Assembly: GCA_030615505.1 (NCBI GenBank)
Contig: JAUWZD010000002.1
Span: 2,436-66,435 of the forward strand
Reading direction: 5' to 3'
Source: Spirochaetales bacterium
GTDB lineage: Bacteria; Spirochaetota; Spirochaetia; SZUA-6; DRHE01
DNA: 64,000 bases
The notes beneath the pieces are model-generated. The model saw only the letters and a program-made list of their open reading frames with translations. It was not told the origin of the DNA and did no database searches. A program made the translations under genes and the position numbers. Shown here one piece after another: positions 34,256-60,956 of this stretch. Within the stretch, counting starts at the first letter, position 1. Each line of letters opens with the position of its first letter.

Positions 34256-35431
34256 GTGCCTCGATATAAGGAGCCGTTTTCTCTCTATCCCAGAAAAACA
34301 AAAAAGGGCGTTGCCGTCTGGTATTATCGAACTTACGATAAGGATGGCGAGCGTACTTATGGCCGATCTACCGGCGAATCTTCAAAGACTCTTGCCCGAC
34401 AATATTGTCAGTCTCTGATTTCCAAAGGCAGATTGATTCCTCAGAAATCACCTACGCTCGCAGAGTGGACAGAGAAAAGGCGATGGTGGATATGGGGAGA
34501 GTGTCTGTATATCAAGGGTCGGCTTGCTCGCTCAGATGTGGATAGACCGGGAATTACTCATCGTTATTGCGATTTGAATTATCAAGTTATGATGAAGAAA
34601 ATTCTATCGATTCATGGAGACAAGCAGCTTGACTCTATTATGCCCGAGGATTGTGAAAAACTATTATTCTCTTGGGCAAATCAGGGAGTCAGTTATAAGA
34701 CTGCAAATAATTGGGCTTCAGTATATCGGGTTATGATGGGCGAGGCAGCCAGATTAAGGATGATAGACGAAAATCCCTGGAAGCGAGTGCTTTCATTATC
34801 TTCCAGCACAAAGAGGCGGGGGATTCTCACGATGGCCGAAGCCCGAACGCTTCTGAATCCGGCGACAATAAACGAAGTGTGGGACAAACACCATATGTAT
34901 TATTGCATCAACCTGATTGCATCTCTCACAGCGATGAGACAGGGGGAGATCCTCGCACTGAGGAAAGAAGATGTGTTCTCCGATCATTTGCATATCAGGC
35001 ATTCATGGTCTGCAAAATATGAGTTGGGGAAAACTAAGACAAAAGAAATTGGCGATGCGCCGATCCCCGGATTTCTGTATCGAGAAATTGAAAAGTATCT
35101 GGAATATGATGGTTATATTTTCAGCTTCAATGGGGGGAAGAGGCCAGCTACAGGGAACCGTGTAACCGAATGGCTATATCGTGCCATGAGAAATATCGGG
35201 ATTTCAGAGCATGAGAGGGTGGAGCGGAATTTAACCTTCCATAGTTGGCGTCATTTTTTCAATACGTATCTGCGGAGCCGGGGCGTGCCAGATTCGCAAA
35301 TAAGGAAAGTTACCCGGCATAAAACCGAAGAAATGACAGAGCATTATACAGAATTCGGATTGGAACATTATAAAGAAACATACGATGCTCAGGATGGATT
35401 CGGGGAATTGATACAGGAGGAAAAAGGATGA
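34256..35431 (+). CDS. Tyrosine-type phage integrase.
   Basis: C-terminal catalytic R...HSWRHFFNTYL...Y pattern and an N-terminal arm-binding region (KKGVAVWYYR). Confidence 0.85.
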   Translation: MPRYKEPFSLYPRKTKKGVAVWYYRTYDKDGERTYGRSTGESSKTLARQYCQSLISKGRLIPQKSPTLAEWTEKRRWWIWGECLYIKGRLARSDVDRPGITHRYCDLNYQVMMKKILSIHGDKQLDSIMPEDCEKLLFSWANQGVSYKTANNWASVYRVMMGEAARLRMIDENPWKRVLSLSSSTKRRGILTMAEARTLLNPATINEVWDKHHMYYCINLIASLTAMRQGEILALRKEDVFSDHLHIRHSWSAKYELGKTKTKEIGDAPIPGFLYREIEKYLEYDGYIFSFNGGKRPATGNRVTEWLYRAMRNIGISEHERVERNLTFHSWRHFFNTYLRSRGVPDSQIRKVTRHKTEEMTEHYTEFGLEHYKETYDAQDGFGELIQEEKG

Positions 35432-35868: not shown

Positions 35869-36144
35869 TCACGGTTCTGTCAAGTCTATCGTTTCATAAG
35901 TCTGTCTTATCCGATCCACATCAACCATATATTCAACGAGCTGCAGCCAGAAATCAAGAGGCATGTATATCAAGCCATTCTGCATATATAACTGCCCCGT
36001 AGAATCAGGCGGAACAGGCCATTCAATCTGAATCGGGATCGGCTCGACCTCTACGGGCAAGCTCGGACATGATAGAAAGAGAAGCGTCAAACTTATCAGC
36101 ATCAGAACCGGAACGTAGCTTCTTTTTTTTCTTTGCCGTTTCAT
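35869..36144 (-). CDS. Outer-membrane lipoprotein, o-spanin-like (Rz1-like).
   Basis: Lipobox LLFLSC, Pro-rich mature part, and a 122-nt out-of-frame overlap with the upstream TM/coiled-coil gene. Confidence 0.5.
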   Translation of the reverse strand: MKRQRKKRSYVPVLMLISLTLLFLSCPSLPVEVEPIPIQIEWPVPPDSTGQLYMQNGLIYMPLDFWLQLVEYMVDVDRIRQTYETIDLTEP

Positions 36145-36334
36145 TGTAAATTTCCTCCATACGCTTGATTATGTGGCCTCGGCGGTCTATTTCTTTAGCG
36201 AATTTATTAGCCCGTGCTTTTTCTCTTTTCGCTTTCTTGCGGAACTTCCAGGCAGCATATAGAGCTAGGCCAGCGACGCCGGTTGTGATGATCGAATACA
36301 AGATCATGATGTACCTCCTGCGATCCAGTGCCAT
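36023..36334 (-). CDS. i-spanin-like protein (N-terminal TM plus charged helical domain).
   Basis: One TM (IMILYSIITTGVAGLALYAAW) followed by a Lys/Arg/Glu-rich helix. Overlaps the lipoprotein gene. Confidence 0.45.
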   Translation of the reverse strand: MALDRRRYIMILYSIITTGVAGLALYAAWKFRKKAKREKARANKFAKEIDRRGHIIKRMEEIYNETAKKKKKLRSGSDADKFDASLSIMSELARRGRADPDSD

Positions 36335-36855
36335 TGGTCTACAAAGTCTCTGTTGTGGATTTCTACCTTGAGTTTGACGGCCTGGAGCATGTAATAATAG
36401 TCGGTGAGATTAGCAGCCACATAATCGAATAGAATCGTGTCGGCAGCATCCAGGATGTAGATATGCCATGGTTCAGGCGTCCAGGGTGATTCAAGAACGG
36501 TTATGCTTACGCTTGCCTGTCCTTCTGCCTCGCCGTCTGAGATAATAATCTGCACGGCGTATACTGTTTCGATTTCCGGGGATTTGGAGAAGAGAAACGC
36601 TGATTCAGTTTCTCCTAGTTGCTCTATCCCGTCTATAGACCACTGGTATGAATGCATATCGCCTACATCTGGATCGTCAACCTCGGCTGTGAGAAGATGA
36701 TTCTGGCCGTTTTCGATTATCGTATCGCCGCCAAGTATTATTACCGTCGGTGCTATGTTCGGCGCCTCTTCAGTTTTTTCTAATTCGGGTGCGGTTGTTT
36801 GAGCACACGCCATGAGAAACAGAAAAATTATCAGGATCGGTAATAATAGTCTCAT
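36304..36855 (-). CDS. Lipoprotein with an Ig-like/beta-sandwich domain.
   Basis: Signal peptide with lipobox LMAC. No family assigned. Confidence 0.5.
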   Translation of the reverse strand: MRLLLPILIIFLFLMACAQTTAPELEKTEEAPNIAPTVIILGGDTIIENGQNHLLTAEVDDPDVGDMHSYQWSIDGIEQLGETESAFLFSKSPEIETVYAVQIIISDGEAEGQASVSITVLESPWTPEPWHIYILDAADTILFDYVAANLTDYYYMLQAVKLKVEIHNRDFVDQWHWIAGGTS

Positions 36856-40512: not shown

Positions 40513-41031
40513 TCATCCTCCAGTCCTCACTGTCTGCGTTTCCGCAGCCGATATATCCAGGGTAAGTGCCCCTACCGTCCCGCCCCCATCAAGTTTCGTG
40601 CCGAAGGTCGTATTGATAGCCGTTACAAGTGCCTGTAAAGCGGTATTTAAAGCGGCGTAGGTTACGAGTTTCTTGCTATCGCCGTTCAGGTCGATATTGC
40701 CGTCGCCATCCAGGTCGATCCTGGCCTTGACGGTTTTGCCGTCGGGAGTCGTGGAGTAGATCGTTGTCTCGCCCTCGGCTACCTGGATATCGAGTTCGTA
40801 ATTGTGGGTAGCGACAATAACGCCATAGCGACGGGACCCTCCAAGCGGGATAAATATACCCCTTGCACCCCCTGGAGGCGCAGAGTAGATGCCGGGCTGC
40901 TGATAGAGTTCAGGTGTAATCACGTCGCCCTTTGTTGCTTCAGCCTGGCATATCACAGCATCGCCGGGAGCGTTGCCCTTCCTGCCGATCTTGGAGGATG
41001 CAATTTTGACGAGTCGATCCATTAATCCCAC
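40513..41031 (-). CDS. Baseplate assembly protein V / spike (Mu gp45-like).
   Basis: 172 aa with an OB-fold N-terminus and a C-terminal Gly-rich beta-helix region. Confidence 0.6.
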   Translation of the reverse strand: MGLMDRLVKIASSKIGRKGNAPGDAVICQAEATKGDVITPELYQQPGIYSAPPGGARGIFIPLGGSRRYGVIVATHNYELDIQVAEGETTIYSTTPDGKTVKARIDLDGDGNIDLNGDSKKLVTYAALNTALQALVTAINTTFGTKLDGGGTVGALTLDISAAETQTVRTGG

Positions 41032-42272
41032 GGATATGCCTCCGGCATTTCGATTGTATAGGTTTCCGGCAACGCCAAGCGCAGATCGGCTACACGTCCC
41101 TGAACCTCATCAATACGAAGCGTTAAACCGGCCACCGTGAACGGGGATTCTCGGTAGATCATTAAAGAAGGGGCGTATAGCGTAATCGGATCGGTCTTAT
41201 TCCAGAGGGACCGGTCCGGAGTCCGCCAACCGGAGACGGTAACATTCAGTCCGACCGAATCAGCAAGCGCCATCGTGCGCCGCCACTTGGCTGCTGTCTC
41301 GGCGTTCTTGCCGTCTGCATCAATACCGATCTCGACTTTGGGACGATAGCAGGGTATTCCCATATCTTCAGCTTGGCCGATATAGGAGGGATTCCCGTCT
41401 TGCTGTAAAAGCACTTTGTATCGAGAAAATCGCTTCGTGCCGTCATAGACAGCCGAGCCGCCGATGAAAGGTGATTCTCCCTCGATGATAGCAGCTACTG
41501 GGCTGCCGGCAGGATTTGATTTCCTTATGATGAGCTTATCCCCGGAATCCGAGGAAGGCAGCATTCCCTTTCCCTGAGCGAGTCGATTAATAAATTCATA
41601 TATTTTTTGTCCTGGTTCAGTCCTGGTCTCCTGGATCGCATCGGTATCGCCGTCGGGCATTTCTACGATGATCCCGAAAAGCTCGCATAACCATCTTGCG
41701 ATTCCGCCAAGAGTTTGCCCTCTGAATTCATGACCCGATCCTTCGATACAATTGTCAACCAAAAATCCTGTCAAAGAGCGCCCCTGTACTGTGATTGTTA
41801 TGTCATCCTTTGAAAATGTAGGTTCGATTTTTTCAACATAGCCTTTCAGGATTTTTTCTTTGCCGATATAGAGTTTACAGGGCTGATAGCCAAATGGCCT
41901 GAACCGCTCCCGCATCTCTTTTCGGGTAGGATCGAAAGGAGCTACAAGGGCAAATGCATCATCACAGATGTCTATTGATCGATCTATCGTAACCCCCTCC
42001 CAGCCGGAAAATAGCTGGCCGGCTACGGCAAGAGAAACCTCGTCTTGATCTATCTCGCCGGATAACTCGAATTCAGGACGTGTTTCATCTGGCAGATCGG
42101 GAATAATCGCAATTTCACCCGGATGTATGAGATTAGGACGGCCACTGCGGAAATTGGAAGCTCGCCAAATGCCGTACCATTTTGATTGATCGCCATATTT
42201 CTTGGCTGCGATTTTCGGGAGGGTATCGCCTTTTACAACCGTATAGCGTTCAGACATAATACGCCACCTCAC
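41022..42272 (-). CDS. Baseplate hub protein (P2 gpD / Mu P-like) with an N-terminal LysM domain (X-D fusion).
   Basis: LysM (YTVVKGDTLPKIAAKKYGD...HPGEIAIIP) followed by a late-control-D-like body. Confidence 0.65.
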   Translation of the reverse strand: MRWRIMSERYTVVKGDTLPKIAAKKYGDQSKWYGIWRASNFRSGRPNLIHPGEIAIIPDLPDETRPEFELSGEIDQDEVSLAVAGQLFSGWEGVTIDRSIDICDDAFALVAPFDPTRKEMRERFRPFGYQPCKLYIGKEKILKGYVEKIEPTFSKDDITITVQGRSLTGFLVDNCIEGSGHEFRGQTLGGIARWLCELFGIIVEMPDGDTDAIQETRTEPGQKIYEFINRLAQGKGMLPSSDSGDKLIIRKSNPAGSPVAAIIEGESPFIGGSAVYDGTKRFSRYKVLLQQDGNPSYIGQAEDMGIPCYRPKVEIGIDADGKNAETAAKWRRTMALADSVGLNVTVSGWRTPDRSLWNKTDPITLYAPSLMIYRESPFTVAGLTLRIDEVQGRVADLRLALPETYTIEMPEAYPWD

Positions 42273-50659: not shown

Positions 50660-51910
50660 TTAGCCTATTTTCCGAATCTTTTTGCGGAAGGCGTCGAGCT
50701 GGACCTTGTCTGGCTCTTCTTCCTCTCCAGTCTCCCCGCTGCCGGTTTTCGTGGTACCGGTAGCGACATCACCTGGAGTATCGTCGCCTGCCTGGCCCTT
50801 CCCATCTTTTCCTGCCTGAGCCGCTTTTCGGATAGCTCCCTCAATGAGCGGATGAGCCTCTTCCATCGATTTGCCGGAGATGATTGCCTCGGCTACAACT
50901 TCCTTACATTCGGGTACGTTCTCCGCCCATGACATGAACTGCGTTACCCGCTTGTGTTCCTCAGATATCCCCGTCTCACGGCCTTTTTTGAGTACCTCCG
51001 CATACAGGCCGGGATTCTCTGCCCTAAATTCTTCAAGAGTCATAAGTTTGACCCCCTTATTTTTTGTTTTAGTCGCTCCTGGAGCGGCTTCATCCGGGGC
51101 AACGCCCTCGGTTTCTCCAATGTCCTGTTTTGATATTCCCTGTATTTTGTCGATCATGCCTACATTTTTCGCATCTTCAGCTACGAGAACCGCACCTCTA
51201 CCATAATCAGAGTTAACTTTCTCAGACGTTGTTTTGCGCCCCTCGGCTACACGAGAAGCGAAGACTCCATGAAGATCGTCCAATTCTTTCTGCCAGACCT
51301 TCTCGCCTTTTTTCGTAAGCGGTTCATATGCAGCTTTCTTTTCCGGTGCATCTGTCGAGGCTATGAGTACACGATCAAGCCCCTGCTCTTTGAAATACCG
51401 GGTGGGATCGAGGAAATCTATTATTACGCCGATGCTGCCGAACATTGCTACCGGGCTTGTGGCGGTGATTTTATCCGCTTGTGAAGCGATCCAATACGCA
51501 GCGGAAGCAGCAAGATTATCGATCCTCGCTTCAGTCGGTTTGTCGGCGCTTCCAACTGCCTGAGCGGATACATCTACGCCGTCTAAATATCCGCCCGGCG
51601 AATTGACATCCAGGACAATTTTTTCAACCTGCGGATCTGTATCCGCCTGGCCAAGTGCCTCGGCAATCTGATCATAAGTGAGTTTTGTGGCGGTCCCGAG
51701 GATCATGTCGATCCAACTGATTTTTCGGGTAAGTACACCGGAGACGGGGATATGTGCCTCGCCATTAACGACATTGTATAGTTTTGGTTTATCTGGCTTA
51801 TCTTTTTCTTCCAGAAGATCAAAAAGAGTTTCAATATTAACGATTGACAGGGCTTGTTCTTGGCGCTTGATATAATCAATAAGAAAGGTTTTTTCTAAGA
51901 GATATTTCAC
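50660..51910 (-). CDS. Head maturation protease (S49 / lambda gpC-like) fused to a scaffold-like C-terminus.
   Basis: VNSPGGYLDG S49 motif. The C-terminal half is acidic and helical. Confidence 0.7.
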   Translation of the reverse strand: MKYLLEKTFLIDYIKRQEQALSIVNIETLFDLLEEKDKPDKPKLYNVVNGEAHIPVSGVLTRKISWIDMILGTATKLTYDQIAEALGQADTDPQVEKIVLDVNSPGGYLDGVDVSAQAVGSADKPTEARIDNLAASAAYWIASQADKITATSPVAMFGSIGVIIDFLDPTRYFKEQGLDRVLIASTDAPEKKAAYEPLTKKGEKVWQKELDDLHGVFASRVAEGRKTTSEKVNSDYGRGAVLVAEDAKNVGMIDKIQGISKQDIGETEGVAPDEAAPGATKTKNKGVKLMTLEEFRAENPGLYAEVLKKGRETGISEEHKRVTQFMSWAENVPECKEVVAEAIISGKSMEEAHPLIEGAIRKAAQAGKDGKGQAGDDTPGDVATGTTKTGSGETGEEEEPDKVQLDAFRKKIRKIG

Positions 51911-52158
51911 TTTCCGCCTCCGTTCTTAGAGCCAAACTTCTCTATCACGCCAACACCCAGGAGTCCTGCGCCTGCATATATCAGTGTCTTGCCAGCCGCC
52001 AGTGCAGTATGGGGATCGGCGACTATTCTGGAAAGAGAAACGACGCCGACTATGCCGAGAAAAACCCCTCCAGCACCTATCAGAATTGTCCCGATCAGGC
52101 GCTTGCTACTTTTATTTCCTTGAGAATCATAAAAAAAGCCTGTTTTAATTTCATTCAT
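51907..52158 (-). CDS. Small two-TM membrane protein (holin-like).
   Basis: Gly-zipper TM segments GAGGVFLGIVGVV and AGAGLLGVGV. Confidence 0.4.
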   Translation of the reverse strand: MNEIKTGFFYDSQGNKSSKRLIGTILIGAGGVFLGIVGVVSLSRIVADPHTALAAGKTLIYAGAGLLGVGVIEKFGSKNGGGK

Positions 52159-52759
52159 ATTTCAGTTCCTTGTAGATAATTGCAAATTTTTTTACGTTCC
52201 GATCGAATTCGTCGATATCCAGACGTCTATTGAATCCATTCCCGTCTGCGAATCTGTCGGGCCAGGAGTCATTGAAAATAATCTCATCGGTTTTATTATC
52301 GTAGGCAACGACAGCGATAAAATGACCGGGTTCCACAAGGCAGATCTGGGCTGCGCATCCGAGCTTCAAATATGCGGCCAGTTTTCTAAAACTGCTAAGC
52401 CAAACGAATGTGCCATCGGCGTTGAAAACCTGTTTGACAGCAAACGGATACAATTGAGGGATTCGGTTGCCGGGGAATGAAACCGGGTCAACGTCATGGC
52501 GGATTTTTTCAAGCTCCTCATAATTCCGGGGATCGTTGAAAAAATCCATAAGAACCTCTTCGGGTTGCGGCTTATACGGCCCCGGACAATAGATTTTCAG
52601 GTTGTAGCCAAAGGCAGCTAGGCAATTTACGGCAGCCGTTGGTCCGCAGGATTCGAGCCAGCCTTCTCCCTTTCGCTTTTTGAGGAGCTGTTCGGTGGGA
52701 TTGTTAGTTTGACAATAATATTTGTCGGGATCCGCCCAAAATTTAGCCCCGTGAATCAT
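52151..52759 (-). CDS. Papain-fold cysteine peptidase (Peptidase_C39_2-like). No signal peptide.
   Basis: Catalytic Cys in ESCGPTAAVNCLAAFGY, His in PGHFIAVVAYD, and Asn/Asp in IIFNDSW. Confidence 0.5.
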   Translation of the reverse strand: MIHGAKFWADPDKYYCQTNNPTEQLLKKRKGEGWLESCGPTAAVNCLAAFGYNLKIYCPGPYKPQPEEVLMDFFNDPRNYEELEKIRHDVDPVSFPGNRIPQLYPFAVKQVFNADGTFVWLSSFRKLAAYLKLGCAAQICLVEPGHFIAVVAYDNKTDEIIFNDSWPDRFADGNGFNRRLDIDEFDRNVKKFAIIYKELKYE

Positions 52760-52995
52760 TTAGTTACCAGCTCCTTAATCTCTTTTACATCGTCCGAAAT
52801 ATTATCCAGTTTCGTTTCAATCACCGCTTGCTGAACTGAAAGTATTCTGATCTGTCCCTCATGGCTTTTGATGTCATTCCGCATATCACGAGTGGGGATC
52901 GTAGCCATGGTTATAATGATGCCGCCGAAAAATATACAGACTGCAATTATCACCGCTACCCATTTCGCGGTCGAGCTCTTGTAATTCAATCCCAT
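52756..52995 (-). CDS. Small membrane protein with an N-terminal TM and a periplasmic coiled coil.
   Basis: WVAVIIAVCIFFGGIIITMA is the TM, followed by a heptad-rich helix. Confidence 0.4.
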   Translation of the reverse strand: MGLNYKSSTAKWVAVIIAVCIFFGGIIITMATIPTRDMRNDIKSHEGQIRILSVQQAVIETKLDNISDDVKEIKELVTK

Positions 52996-53005
52996 TCAGA
53001 CCCCC

Positions 53006-54703
53006 TCATCGCAATTCCTCTATTACCATTTCCGCAACTTCCTCTTTCGCTTCTTCTTTATCGCCGTCTCCATTTTCCCCTGAAGGCAGTATTGCTGGAG
53101 CCAGCGATTTCTTCGCTTCGGTCAGTTCTGGATTTTCAACTTTTAGACGTTCGATGTTTTCGGAGAATTCCGATCCGTTATAGATCCTCGCTTCCCGTTC
53201 TCCAGTTGTATGTCCGAGACCAGTTCTGAGTTGGACAGCCTTGACCTCTTTAAGCGGATCAATTGAGGGCTTGCTGATTCCAGTCCAAGAGCAATTGAGC
53301 CAGGCACGGCGGGTAACAGCGGTTTTCCATCCAAGCGCTTTAATCCGATTTGATTCAATCTCTCCACCCATCCAAGCTTCCAGTAGAGGATTGAGAATAT
53401 CTGCCCCGATATTGACTCGGTATATGGCGATATCGTTCCAAAATAGGATCAGAGTCGCACGGGAAGCGGAATAATTTTGATTGAATGACATTTCCACACA
53501 TTCATCCGGGATTCCGATTGATGCGGAGAGACCCGATTTTATGGATTTGACAAACGTATCACGATTTGCGCTGGGACGTTTTGTGTCGATTTCACTGATT
53601 TTCTCGCCTGGCCCAAGATTCTGGATTATAAGACCGGGCTTATGAATTACGCCGGTTGTAGGCGGGTTGATCTGCGTAGATTCAAATAATTCTGCGCCGG
53701 TATTCCTTAGCCGGATGCCATCAAAAGGTCTTGAAGAAGCTTTCCCTTCCGACGGCTCAATATAAGCTGCGATACAAGCGTTGATTATCATCGACTCGAT
53801 TTCTGCGACATCGGCGTCGGTAAGTTTTTGCAACTCATGGATCATGTTTGCCAGTATGGGAATTCCCCGTACCTGGCCGACGGAATCAATGAGAGGCGAA
53901 TGGATCATGAAAAGTTTCCCGGATTTAGGGCCTTTTCGGATTACGCGGGTTGGTTTTCCAGTTTCCTCATCGTGGACATAATAGGCGATTTCCTCACCCG
54001 TTTTGCTGATTTCGATACCGTCAACAATTTTGTTACCACGAAGTTTCGCAGCTTTGAGCATTTCGGAGCTGCCGGGAGTATATATTTGATCAGGCTGAAA
54101 AAATTGAACATAGAGTGGATTCATGCGGGAATTATCAGATGAATAATGAAGGCGTAAAAATGTTTCGCCGTCTCGGAGTCTGTTAAGAAATTCAAAAGTT
54201 TCAAGTTGATAGAGCGTCATACGACCCGAGGCACTCGGCTCTTTCGAGTTTGCCCAGAGGTGGTACCGAGACTCAGTGTTACGAATCCAGACTCGCTTTT
54301 CTTCTTCAGATGCCTTCAGCCAGCAGATTTCCCAGATCGGCGCAGATTCCAGCTTCAGCCCGGTATTGACGGTATTGTCTACGAGCCTACCTATAAGTGC
54401 TCGGCCATGTACGCTTTCCCAATATGCGATGCGAGACCGCCGGCGTAATTTTTCATGATCGAGATTCCAGCCGGAAGGATAACCAAGTGCGCCTGGATAT
54501 TTCCCGCCTGAAAATGTCGAGGTCAATCCGCTCTGGCCTGTCCAAGAAGACATGGCTATAGCGGAGTGTCGGAATAATCGGCGGAGAGATGCCCGCCCTA
54601 GATCGATTTGCGTGCCGGGAAACTCTCGATCCAGTTCCTGAATTGCAGTGGCATAATCTCGGTCAACGGATTTTCTTCGGCGGAATAGATTGAGCAATTT
54701 CAT
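53006..54703 (-). CDS. Portal protein (lambda gpB family).
   Basis: 565 aa, directly downstream of TerL and gpW. Phage_portal_2-like. Confidence 0.75.
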   Translation of the reverse strand: MKLLNLFRRRKSVDRDYATAIQELDREFPGTQIDLGRASLRRLFRHSAIAMSSWTGQSGLTSTFSGGKYPGALGYPSGWNLDHEKLRRRSRIAYWESVHGRALIGRLVDNTVNTGLKLESAPIWEICWLKASEEEKRVWIRNTESRYHLWANSKEPSASGRMTLYQLETFEFLNRLRDGETFLRLHYSSDNSRMNPLYVQFFQPDQIYTPGSSEMLKAAKLRGNKIVDGIEISKTGEEIAYYVHDEETGKPTRVIRKGPKSGKLFMIHSPLIDSVGQVRGIPILANMIHELQKLTDADVAEIESMIINACIAAYIEPSEGKASSRPFDGIRLRNTGAELFESTQINPPTTGVIHKPGLIIQNLGPGEKISEIDTKRPSANRDTFVKSIKSGLSASIGIPDECVEMSFNQNYSASRATLILFWNDIAIYRVNIGADILNPLLEAWMGGEIESNRIKALGWKTAVTRRAWLNCSWTGISKPSIDPLKEVKAVQLRTGLGHTTGEREARIYNGSEFSENIERLKVENPELTEAKKSLAPAILPSGENGDGDKEEAKEEVAEMVIEELR

Positions 54704-58844: not shown

Positions 58845-59501
58845 TTGAAGATGGTAAAACACATGGCTAAATCCATATTCAGTATCACCACCGATGTGAA
58901 GAAATACACAAAGCAAATGAACCGGGTCAACAAGGAGCTGCTGCCGAAGGCGATAGGTAATACAATGAATCGTGCTTGCAACGCATCTCATAGCCGGAGC
59001 ATACGGAATATTAAAAGCGATCTTATTCTCCGTAATCAATACACCGAACGATCCATGATCCTCTGGAAATCGAAATACAAGCCTGGCCGGAGCATCGACC
59101 GTATCAGTGCTACTACTGGCTCTAAATCTCCTTACCTCCCGCTCCAGGAAACAGGCGGAGTTGTGAGAGCAAAAAAGAGCAAGATCCCTGTCCCCACCCT
59201 GGCGGGCAGGCGAGGCAAGTGGAGAAAGCCGATCCCGCCAAGCTTGCGGATGAACCGGATGGGAGCGATAGGCACTGAAGGCTCTAAGTTCTTTTTTATG
59301 AAAAGCCCAGGCGGGAAAAAGGGGATTTTCTATCGTAAGTCAAAAAAGAAGATCGTCAAAGTAAGGGATATTTCCAGGCGGAGCTATCGGATCAAGGCTA
59401 CTCGTTGGCATAGTGAGGCAGTAAAGAAATTCGGCAATAAGCGTATTATGGGCCAGCTATTTGTCCAGGAGGCTAAGAGGCAGTTGGCGAAGGTGAGTTA
59501 G
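58845..59501 (+). CDS. Hypothetical very basic phage protein.
   Basis: 218-aa ORF, Lys/Arg-rich. Start uncertain (TTG at 58845, ATG at 58851 or 58866). Confidence 0.35.
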   Translation: MKMVKHMAKSIFSITTDVKKYTKQMNRVNKELLPKAIGNTMNRACNASHSRSIRNIKSDLILRNQYTERSMILWKSKYKPGRSIDRISATTGSKSPYLPLQETGGVVRAKKSKIPVPTLAGRRGKWRKPIPPSLRMNRMGAIGTEGSKFFFMKSPGGKKGIFYRKSKKKIVKVRDISRRSYRIKATRWHSEAVKKFGNKRIMGQLFVQEAKRQLAKVS

Positions 59502-59527: not shown

Positions 59528-59842
59528 TCAGGTTATCGCCATGAGAGCGATGGTCCCGCCAAGAACAATCAGCATGATGTGTAAAATCGTGTATATCAAG
59601 GCCAACGGGATTTGTTTGGCGATCTCCTCTTTTTTTCTACGCTTGATCAACTCAATGAAGGTGTGAATATGATACAATGCTCCCAAAACACCCGCAATAA
59701 AGATAGTGATCTTCGCGGTACAAGCTAATCTGGGTGGAATTTCCCCTCCGAATCTAAACAGCGCGGAAATGCCAAAATATAGCAATAGAGATAGATAAGT
59801 GGTTCTTATTTGAACACCCTTCATAAACTGTATCTGATCCAT
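59528..59842 (-). CDS. Small polytopic membrane protein (accessory gene).
   Basis: Three or four TM helices. ATG 59842 has a GGAGG SD. Low-GC block. Confidence 0.45.
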   Translation of the reverse strand: MDQIQFMKGVQIRTTYLSLLLYFGISALFRFGGEIPPRLACTAKITIFIAGVLGALYHIHTFIELIKRRKKEEIAKQIPLALIYTILHIMLIVLGGTIALMAIT

Positions 59843-59895
59843 AGCGACCTCCAGCTTCAAGTATTTGACCCCTTCAGACACGGCTGGGGAGGGGT

Positions 59896-60258
59896 TTACC
59901 AAGTAAGTTTTTCTTGGCTAGCTTCTAATTGTTCTCTATACATCATAAAAATAGTCGAATAATTGCACATGCCAATTGAGCAATATGTCTCAATTACATT
60001 ATCTAATAATTTTCTGTTTTTCGCTTTCATCAATTTCTTAAATGCCTCAAGCTCTTCCTTTTCCATCATCCGTAATATTAACGGATCACCCATGCCGATA
60101 GCAGTATAGGTTTTTTTAACGTTCTCCTGAATAAAGGCGATAACTTCCTGTTTTTCTTTATCCGTTCCCTTGAAATCTAATGGATGAATAAAATCATCAG
60201 CAAATAGAGGCGCACAAACAAAAAATATAACAGTCAAGATAAATGCTTTTTTCTTCAT
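59896..60258 (-). CDS. Small secreted protein (accessory gene).
   Basis: Signal peptide MKKKAFILTVIFFVCAPLFA, SD AGGAGG. Low GC. Confidence 0.45.
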   Translation of the reverse strand: MKKKAFILTVIFFVCAPLFADDFIHPLDFKGTDKEKQEVIAFIQENVKKTYTAIGMGDPLILRMMEKEELEAFKKLMKAKNRKLLDNVIETYCSIGMCNYSTIFMMYREQLEASQEKLTW

Positions 60259-60293
60259 CTTTCCTATCCTCCTAGTTCCAACAAGGTAAAAAG

Positions 60294-60842
60294 TTAATTT
60301 AGCTTAAATTCAATCCAATGATTAACTATATAATCATCGCTTATATTCATTTCATGGGTGATCCACATTTCCGGGAACCATTTACCTACTATTAGCGTGC
60401 TGAAAGGAGCAAAGATAAGCTTTTTCTCTCCTTCATGAATTACATAATATGGGTCAAATTTCCTCTCGCCAATATTACTTTGAACATTATAGTCTTTGAC
60501 TAATTGATCGTTTATTTTCTTGAAATCCTCCCTATATTTAGCTTCGTCTCTGTATTCTCTAGAATCAAAAAACCAGTCAATATATACGAGTTCTTTATGC
60601 TGATTAAAATTAAAAACGACTTCAACATTTTCTTCAGCATAGTGCAAGCCTTTATATCGAAACTCGAAAGCATAAGGATGTTCTATTTCCTTGGTAGGCT
60701 CTCCATATTTCTCTTTTACATCTTCCAGAAACATATTCCAGTCAATTTCAAAAGGAAGCGTTAATTTTGATTCTGCAAAGACAAAGACAGCTATAAAAAG
60801 CAATAGAACGGTAATTGCGAAAGTGCCGATTATCTTTTTCAT
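60294..60842 (-). CDS. Secreted protein (accessory gene).
   Basis: Signal peptide MKKIIGTFAITVLLLFIAVFVFA, AGGAGG SD at ATG 60842. About 35% GC. Confidence 0.45.
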   Translation of the reverse strand: MKKIIGTFAITVLLLFIAVFVFAESKLTLPFEIDWNMFLEDVKEKYGEPTKEIEHPYAFEFRYKGLHYAEENVEVVFNFNQHKELVYIDWFFDSREYRDEAKYREDFKKINDQLVKDYNVQSNIGERKFDPYYVIHEGEKKLIFAPFSTLIVGKWFPEMWITHEMNISDDYIVNHWIEFKLN

Positions 60843-60956
60843 ATTTGCCTCCTGGTTCCAATATATCATTTCAAGTATTTTACATCCAGATAATTTTTAC
60901 AAGCAAAAAAATCAAAGATTATGCAGCCGGAGGCCGATTTTCGATATAAAGGGATT

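Follow-up and report, generated by a model that had tools for sequence, protein, structure and literature searches.

A candidate holin-endolysin cassette with a C39-like cysteine peptidase between the portal and head protease genes of a spirochaete prophage

The DNA analyzed here is a stretch of 64,000 nucleotides from a Spirochaetales bacterium (contig JAUWZD010000002.1 of assembly GCA_030615505.1, forward-strand positions 2,436 to 66,435), which is called the window below and which carries a prophage. Three small genes at positions 51907-52995, between the portal and head maturation protease genes of the prophage, are likely to be the holin-endolysin part of its lysis system, positioned within the late head operon. 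They encode a 79-amino-acid (aa) protein with a transmembrane (TM) segment and a coiled coil, a 202-aa cysteine peptidase, and an 83-aa protein with two TM segments. This reading is supported by the coupling of the three genes, the catalytic tetrad of the peptidase, its papain/C39 fold, the positional equivalence of its gene with endolysin genes, and the absence of another recognizable wall hydrolase from the late operon. Related phages have ordinary wall enzymes in the same position, and the cassette would therefore represent an unusual layout of a known lysis system.

The three open reading frames (ORFs) lie on the minus strand exactly as described in an earlier note, which was made from the sequence of the window alone. 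The same three genes are predicted on a Logan contig by an independent gene caller, and homologues are known for all three proteins. The stop codon of the portal gene is separated from the 79-aa gene by a 10-nt gap with the ribosome-binding site GAGGGGG. The successive junctions of the cassette are ATGA, ATGAATGA, and GTGA overlaps, indicating translational coupling, as the earlier note had claimed. Promoter-like and terminator-like sites that could belong to the cassette itself occur only at the level expected by chance. From these sites and the coupled junctions, the cassette is taken to be expressed together with the late head operon, as one of its parts. No strong compositional break was found at the cassette. 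The head protease gene is followed by a gene for a 228-aa protein without a family match and by the gene for a gpE-type major capsid protein.

The 202-aa protein is a cytoplasmic Cys-His peptidase of the C39_2/papain fold, in agreement with the earlier assignment. The catalytic residues Gln17, Cys38, His146, and Asp164 are invariant in 45 aligned homologues, and hydropathy analysis of the protein identified no TM segment, signal peptide, or signal-arrest-release (SAR) sequence. The match to Peptidase_C39_2 (PF13529) is a marginal pass, with a score of 24.9 bits relative to the cut-off of 24.0 (E 3.4e-5), and its alignment covers residues 122-166 only. A precomputed PF13529 match is present in most of the homologues. 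The AlphaFold2 model calculated from the alignment of the 45 homologues has a papain-like alpha+beta fold and is confident (predicted local distance difference test, pLDDT, 92.3; predicted template modelling score, pTM, 0.90). Structure prediction had been proposed as a way of sorting wall hydrolases from C39 processing peptidases. The resulting model is not CHAP/NlpC-like, and the structures nearest to it are PeiR and C39-like peptidases, including the C39-like peptidase of Bacillus anthracis (3erv). The best neighbors among predicted viral structures are multi-domain "lysozyme"/peptidoglycan-binding proteins of cyanophages and an endolysin of a Gordonia phage. Since these neighbors include lysozyme and endolysin proteins, the fold is compatible with a wall peptidase, but by itself it is no proof of one.

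The search of 5.8 billion proteins identified 151 homologues of the peptidase, and 293 cluster representatives, out of the 1.84 billion that were searched, match the peptidase profile at E<=1e-3. The best 150 of these 293 matches are all free-standing proteins of about 90-240 aa. The family was found almost only in genome bins of Spirochaetota (Treponema, Spirochaetaceae, and Rectinemataceae) and in uncultivated phage contigs. The named organisms with homologues include Treponema phagedenis and Treponema vincentii. The peptidase does not match any PHROG, a tblastn search of 50,697 GenBank phage records gave no match, and a sequence search of the PDB returned insignificant matches only (CYLD USP, E 0.11). 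At one related locus (loci are referred to by L numbers), L075 8830-9995, two 191-aa ORFs just upstream of the C39 gene resemble paralogues that lack the catalytic cysteine (SGPQAAV compared to SCGPTAAV).

The position of the peptidase gene was compared among relatives of the prophage that were retrieved from IMG/VR with an alignment of portal proteins; a search of IMG/VR with the single portal protein gave no matches. According to the earlier note, lambda-like head modules have nothing between the portal and protease genes. This holds for lambda, but not for the lineage of the window: the gap is 0.5-3.6 kb long in 43 of the 49 relatives with a lambda-type portal and at most 400 nt in six, where the 49 are those with a detectable downstream ClpP/S49 protease and the gap statistics depend on the detection of the protease by tblastn. 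In slots framed by a homologue of the 83-aa protein, different enzymes are encoded between this homologue and a small TM/coiled-coil protein. Besides C39-like peptidases, the slot contains Peptidase_M23, Peptidase_M15_4, GH19-like, Amidase_2, and DUF261 proteins (Table 1). In the 99 C39-bearing sequences, there is no detectable relative of these five types, and the sequences with these types likewise lack C39. Such modular replacement of enzymes is typical of lysis cassettes, and the C39-like protein is therefore in the endolysin position. The 202-aa protein thus has several features expected of an endolysin: overlap of its gene with genes of small TM proteins, no signal or SAR sequence, and exchange with endolysin families.

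Two further loci connect the cassette to other lysis cassettes. L054 encodes a tail fiber homologous to that of the window, and its baseplate genes are in a similar order. The fiber gene of L054 is followed by genes for a coiled-coil protein with a C-terminal TM segment, the C39 peptidase, a homologue of the 83-aa protein (49% identity), an i-spanin, and an o-spanin. What is split in the window is therefore present as one contiguous lysis cassette in a related phage. In the unrelated phage L086, P0135, a distant homologue of the 83-aa protein (E 1e-10), is clustered with a Peptidase_M15_3 endolysin, an N-terminal-TM coiled-coil protein, small TM proteins, and a spanin-like pair. The synteny comparison suggested in the earlier note thus places canonical endolysins in the same slot and the C39 gene next to spanin genes in L054. 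The same note had described the three genes as possibly a displaced lysis cassette. The enzyme swapping and the gene orders in L054 and L086 support the lysis cassette, but it is displaced only relative to lambda, because the slot is occupied in most of the related phages.

The DUF261 (PF03196) proteins of the slot are about 140 aa long and contain Cys and His motifs (L102 5530-5943, L105 4959-5564, and L113 5614-6057); the gene in L102 is located just upstream of the 83-aa homologue. Their location suggests that DUF261 may be a further candidate endolysin family. DUF261 is presumably a Borrelia family, and the literature search found no paper on it. L106 2918-3610 encodes a class 3 lipase (PF01764, E 1.1e-10) right after the portal, in the same slot as M15_4 and the 83-aa homologue. 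The lipase may be a lysis factor directed at envelope lipids.

Genes of the peptidase family occur in four types of genomic context. The order found in the window (portal, TM/coiled-coil protein, C39, two-TM protein, and protease) is present in L004, L009, L026, and L088, with variants in L031, which has a 328-aa insertion, and L040, which lacks the first gene. In about 25 loci of Mu-like Treponema prophages, the MuF gene is followed after about 300 nt by the C39 gene and after another 120 nt or so by the protease I gene, without a TM partner. In the third context, C39 genes are part of classical-looking lysis cassettes after tail-fiber genes (L029, L036, L042, L043, L048, L052, L054, L074, and L078), which include small TM proteins and often spanin-like pairs. 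The C39 gene is accompanied by both small TM proteins and spanin-like pairs in L014, L029, L048, L052, and L078, and in L014 the whole set is located directly after the portal gene. The fourth context, in larger phages, has the order TerL, zinc-finger protein, and C39. A small two-TM ORF is present just downstream of C39 in 13 of 69 distinct contexts, compared to 19 of 425 control genes, and a small TM ORF just upstream in 20 of 69 compared to 53 of 425; these counts are lower bounds, as the crude automatic classifier used undercounts TM partners and spanins. Upstream of TerS, the Mu-like Treponema prophages encode a 145-aa multi-TM protein, an i-/o-spanin-like pair, and a 148-aa N-terminal-TM coiled-coil protein. 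No wall hydrolase was found in this cluster; the C39 gene is instead in the head module.

Several smaller observations concern the surroundings of these peptidase genes. L091 7078-8447, upstream of TerS in a Mu-like Treponema prophage, is an enzyme-free, lysis-like cluster; its products are a multi-TM protein (145 aa), an i-spanin-like protein (100 aa), a lipoprotein from an overlapping gene (128 aa), and an N-terminal-TM coiled-coil protein (148 aa). The conserved hairpin motif GGGCRGRATTTGCGYCYGC, with a 5-bp stem and the loop ATTTGCG, occurs once or twice in each of 18 loci of Mu-like Treponema prophages (Table 1). It is always on the coding strand and, wherever its position was compared to that of C39, in the intergenic region between MuF and C39. 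The motif has no match in Rfam, does not occur in the window, and may regulate the peptidase gene or act as a processing element for it. Genes for GIY-YIG/NUMOD3 homing endonucleases are located directly upstream of C39 in L008 (2599-3219) and L014 (4363-5004), and in L008 the endonuclease gene comes between the XhlA-like and C39 genes. Such endonucleases could contribute to the movement of the endolysin gene from one genomic position to another.

The 79-aa protein has one strong N-terminal TM segment (residues ~5-36, KD17 peak 2.93), and its 45 C-terminal residues have a heptad pattern with hydrophobic residues in 10 of 13 a/d positions. The Pfam profile XhlA (PF10779) aligns to it over profile positions 10-47 of 67 with 14.7 bits, below the cut-off of 34.7 (E 0.035). 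Nevertheless, 17 of 19 members of the 79-aa family match XhlA at E<=0.05, the best at 8.6e-7, and the homologue P0308 has a precomputed PF10779 match. The coiled coil of the 79-aa protein follows its TM segment, in contrast to the XhlA of Bacillus subtilis PBSX, in which the coiled coil precedes a C-terminal TM anchor. Variants with a C-terminal TM segment precede C39 in L014, L036, L043, L054, and L074, and analogous TM and coiled-coil proteins precede the enzyme gene in many related cassettes. On the basis of its sequence, the 79-aa protein is probably a remote XhlA-like lysis accessory, a partner or regulator of the holin. The earlier note was correct about the N-terminal TM segment and the coiled coil, but its i-spanin-like or holin-like assignment fits less well than an XhlA-like one. 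The i-spanin function was rejected because the periplasmic part comprises only about 45 residues and a separate spanin pair is present.

The 83-aa protein contains a strong TM1 (residues ~18-49, peak 2.34), a weaker Gly/Ala-rich TM2 (residues ~51-76, peak 1.46), and a short basic C-terminus, EKFGSKNGGGK. About 20 homologues were found for each of the two membrane proteins. The suggestion that the 83-aa protein resembles class II holins is compatible with the two-TM layout, with the reservation that TM2 is weak, but the protein does not belong to a described holin family. When 20 small TM partner proteins encoded at other loci were scanned with Pfam and PHROG, the only assignment was a weak match to a holin PHROG (E 0.005). 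Identification of the 83-aa protein as a pilin of a type IV secretion system (T4SS) was rejected, since its T4SS_pilin score is below the threshold (20.4 versus 26.6 bits) and T4SS genes are absent.

The prophage starts at an integrase gene (34256-35431) beside tRNA-Met. It combines a lambda-like head with a Mu-like tail and baseplate (Gp45, Gp46, Gp48, GpP, and DNA_circ_N families). Its late operon is on the minus strand and extends from about 58.2 kb down to 35.9 kb, where it ends in an overlapping spanin-like gene pair. The pair at 35869-36334 has the architecture of two-component spanins, namely an i-spanin with an N-terminal TM segment and an overlapping gene for an o-spanin lipoprotein. 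Its matches to spanin PHROGs are weak (Rz-like at E ~0.04), and it does not match any Pfam family. A homologue of the i-spanin is encoded about 0.8 kb downstream of the C39 gene in L017, and homologues of the o-spanin follow C39 cassettes in L054 (E 2e-4) and L017 (E 4e-6). The presence of a spanin-like gene pair at the distal end of the prophage, with neither an endolysin nor a holin gene beside it, is thus confirmed. Nearly all other proteins of the late operon in the window were scanned, and the only families found were structural ones, without another wall hydrolase. The prophage sequence was examined up to about 66.4 kb, using a 10.9-kb Logan contig that extends past the window end by about 2.4 kb. 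No endolysin was found elsewhere in this part, and the prophage continues further.

The enzyme swapping, the cassettes of L054 and L086, and the lack of an alternative endolysin make the canonical holin-endolysin-spanin pathway the most likely mechanism. The 202-aa C39_2-like peptidase would accumulate in folded form in the cytoplasm, while the 83-aa two-TM protein would collect in the inner membrane. At a programmed time, holes formed by the 83-aa protein would give the peptidase access to peptidoglycan, its presumed substrate, and the peptidase would cleave the peptide part of the wall. The 79-aa XhlA-like protein may assist or time the holin in the way that XhlA works with XhlB in PBSX of Bacillus. 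The outer membrane would then be disrupted by the i-/o-spanin pair, whose genes end the late operon 16 kb from the cassette. We speculate, by analogy to PeiR and from the restriction of the family to treponeme-like hosts, that the bond cleaved may be the cross-link or isopeptide bond of the ornithine-type treponeme wall. More speculatively, and with low probability, the portal-protease slot could be a conserved lysis site of a large lineage of phages with lambda-type portals, with C39-like and DUF261 proteins as spirochaete-adapted endolysins for ornithine-type cross-links.

Several results weigh against this assignment. The hhalign comparison of the peptidase to the N5 domain of LysA from mycobacteriophage Bxz2 is not significant (probability 2.3%, E 0.02). 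Neither the 83-aa nor the 79-aa protein matches a holin family in Pfam or PHROG, and TM2 of the 83-aa protein is only weakly hydrophobic. A TM protein adjacent to C39 is absent from about half of the contexts, namely the Mu-like and the TerL and zinc-finger classes. Because the prophage extends beyond the ~66.4 kb examined, it may encode a further endolysin.

The alternatives to a lysis function differ in where the peptidase would act. It could belong to a non-lytic, membrane-associated protease module for superinfection exclusion, anti-defense, or membrane-protein processing, in which the TM proteins would recruit or regulate a cytoplasmic protease. Such a module leaves unexplained why M23, M15_4, GH19-like, and Amidase_2 enzymes take the same position with the same two-TM partner and why spanin genes are directly adjacent at several loci, L054 among them, and with it the phage would have no endolysin in its late operon. 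We consider it unlikely, and the membrane-targeted accessory or anti-defense module that the earlier note had kept as an alternative is disfavored because of the enzyme swapping and the spanin adjacency. Alternatively, the peptidase could be capsid cargo, loaded via the portal or MuF and delivered with the DNA as a wall-piercing enzyme or a MuF-toxin-like effector. The recurrence of the gene beside packaging and head genes in three unrelated types of module (lambda-type portal, MuF, and TerL with a zinc-finger protein) speaks for this possibility, and MuF proteins, which belong to the head and are bound to the portal, can contain toxin domains (PMC5576092). However, the window does not contain a MuF gene, an immunity-like gene is absent after the peptidase gene, and the Mu-like relatives have no such ORF before the protease gene. 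Furthermore, about 20 contexts are outside head modules, by tail fibers, small TM proteins, and spanins, and ordinary endolysins fill the slot in relatives. Capsid cargo is therefore quite improbable. A MuF-associated polymorphic toxin was rejected, as C39 in the Mu-like relatives is a separate gene without an immunity-like ORF. There is a small chance that the peptidase is more than an endolysin, in that it is loaded into the capsid, ejected with the DNA, and acts on the wall or a host protein at entry, with the TM proteins having a separate role in lysis.

The location of the gene between those of the portal and the protease would also suit an accessory protease for head maturation or scaffold processing alongside the S49/ClpP protease. 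However, the papain/C39 fold is unlike that of known prohead proteases, many homologues are outside head modules, the flanking membrane proteins have no role in prohead assembly, and the module already has a complete S49/ClpP protease. This function is very improbable, and the structural head-maturation fold, which the earlier note had named as an outcome that would contradict a lysis role, was not seen, since the model is papain/C39-like. Processing of a small, bacteriocin-like secreted peptide by a C39 double-glycine leader peptidase has hardly any probability: an ABC transporter is neither fused nor encoded nearby, and the neighborhood lacks a gene for a leader-type peptide. The residues GGGK at the C-terminus of the 83-aa protein are not conserved in homologues and coincide with the ribosome-binding site GGAGG of the next gene. 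The C39 bacteriocin-processing type (PF03412, PCAT) was rejected for the single-domain architecture of the protein and the lack of transporter and leader genes in its neighborhood.

The predicted holin-endolysin-spanin system of the window resembles the canonical systems of phages of Gram-negative bacteria, such as S/R/Rz/Rz1 of lambda, in its soluble cytoplasmic wall enzyme, the adjoining gene for a small multi-TM protein, the overlapping spanin genes, and the late position of all of them. It differs in its enzyme, a C39_2-like cysteine peptidase where those systems have a transglycosylase, lysozyme, or amidase, in the placement of the holin-endolysin genes between portal and protease and 16 kb from the spanins, and in the additional XhlA-like gene. 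Unlike in canonical systems, the holin and spanin candidates have no family-level match to known ones. The cassette is also similar to xhlA-xhlB-xlyA of PBSX, a three-gene unit for a small coiled-coil membrane protein, a holin, and an endolysin. However, the order in the window is accessory-endolysin-holin, the host is diderm, and the enzyme is a cysteine peptidase instead of an Amidase_2 protein. A synergistic action of XhlA with its holin, XhlB, is predicted for PBSX, and xhlA, xhlB, and xlyA are all needed for the endolysin-dependent release of membrane vesicles (PMC5589764).

Peptidase_C39_2 is a listed class of endolysin catalytic domains (PMC5017753), and the N5 domain of mycobacteriophage LysA, for example that of Bxz2 gp11, matches the structure 3erv (PMC3314691). 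The peptidase of the window is likewise a papain-fold Cys-His peptidase domain matching 3erv, as in PET-C39-2/LysA N5. It differs from N5, which is a module of a multi-domain lysin with a wall-binding domain, in being a free-standing single domain of about 200 aa. Compared to the pseudomurein endoisopeptidases PeiR, PeiW, and PeiP (family C71, from methanogen viruses), the identity is only 14% over 133 aligned residues. The substrate of the Pei enzymes is archaeal pseudomurein, and they have additional wall-binding repeats. Other phages, such as mycobacteriophage Patience, have also been described to carry genes between portal and protease (PMC4324244). A limited literature search found no description of a lineage-wide lysis slot at this position, and no characterized endolysin for phages of Treponema and relatives was found in the literature searched. 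The aspects that differ here are a spirochaete-restricted, free-standing, uncharacterized peptidase subfamily, an XhlA-like partner of inverted topology in a diderm host, and the portal-protease location apart from the spanins.

If confirmed, the peptidase would serve many Treponema prophages as their lysis enzyme, among them the prophages of T. phagedenis and T. vincentii, and would also be a candidate lytic enzyme against hard-to-treat treponemes in periodontal disease and digital dermatitis. Lysis genes could then reside in the head module, and a lineage with lambda-type portals would have a swappable endolysin between portal and protease. Annotation pipelines in which lysis genes are looked for close to the terminase or where the late operon ends would miss those of the head module. 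The slot position also marks DUF261 as a candidate endolysin family.

Table 1. Features of the window and of related loci; positions given without a locus number are those of the window
Feature	Position or locus	Strand	Details
79-aa TM and coiled-coil protein gene	52756-52995	minus	ORF; XhlA-like lysis accessory, probably holin partner or regulator
202-aa Peptidase_C39_2-like papain-fold cysteine peptidase gene	52151-52759	minus	ORF; predicted endolysin
83-aa two-TM protein gene	51907-52158	minus	ORF; holin candidate, class II topology
Lambda-family portal gene, upstream boundary of the slot	53006-54703	minus	PF05136 E 3.9e-53; phrog_21
S49/ClpP-type head maturation protease gene, downstream boundary of the slot	50660-51910	minus	PF01343 E 1.2e-22; phrog_53 E 4.7e-66
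103-aa i-spanin-like protein gene	36023-36334	minus	TM at residues 7-29, charged periplasmic part
91-aa o-spanin-like lipoprotein gene	35869-36144	minus	Lipobox LFLSC after hydrophobic segment; 122-nt overlap with i-spanin gene
Slot enzyme C39-like, with 83-aa homologue	L096, L110, L114, L116, L008		
Slot enzyme C39-like, with different two-TM protein	L099, L100, L109		
Slot enzyme Peptidase_M23, with 83-aa homologue	L103		E 2.7e-8
Slot enzyme Peptidase_M15_4, with 83-aa homologue	L106, L119, L107		E 7e-14 (L106); E 2.9e-10 (L119); weak (L107)
Slot enzyme DUF261, with 83-aa homologue	L102		E 3.1e-10
Slot enzyme DUF261	L105, L113		
Slot enzyme GH19-like	L135		Homologous to GH19 part of mycobacteriophage Bxz2 LysA
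Slot enzyme Amidase_2			Two proteins; exact loci not pinned down
Hairpin GGGCRGRATTTGCGYCYGC	L002 5694-5734, 5802-5842; L001, L003, L012, L018-L022, L024, L025, L027, L030, L034, L067, L090-L092		

Other parts of the prophage contain a few additional features. The Mu GpP/gp44-like baseplate hub encoded at 41022-42272 has a weak N-terminal LysM-like segment (E 0.002, below threshold). It is the sole other peptidoglycan-related signal of the late operon and corresponds to a binding, not a catalytic, domain. The gene at 36304-36855, between the tail-fiber genes and the spanins, encodes a 183-aa lipoprotein with a weak PKD/Ig-like match. Its position is that of the C39 and holin genes in L054, and its product may be a surface or exclusion protein. 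The minus-strand genes at 59528-60869 encode membrane or secreted proteins of 124, 120, and 191 aa without family matches. They fall in a region of low GC content (35% in 60-62 kb) that separates the late operon from the repressor gene, and the group looks like a moron or lysogenic-conversion block. Judged from its sequence, the 124-aa multi-TM protein of this group may be holin-like. Upstream of the late operon and opposite to it in strand, a gene for a minor-tail or tail-completion-like protein (58845-59501, phrog_4688, E 4e-16) stands alone on the plus strand.

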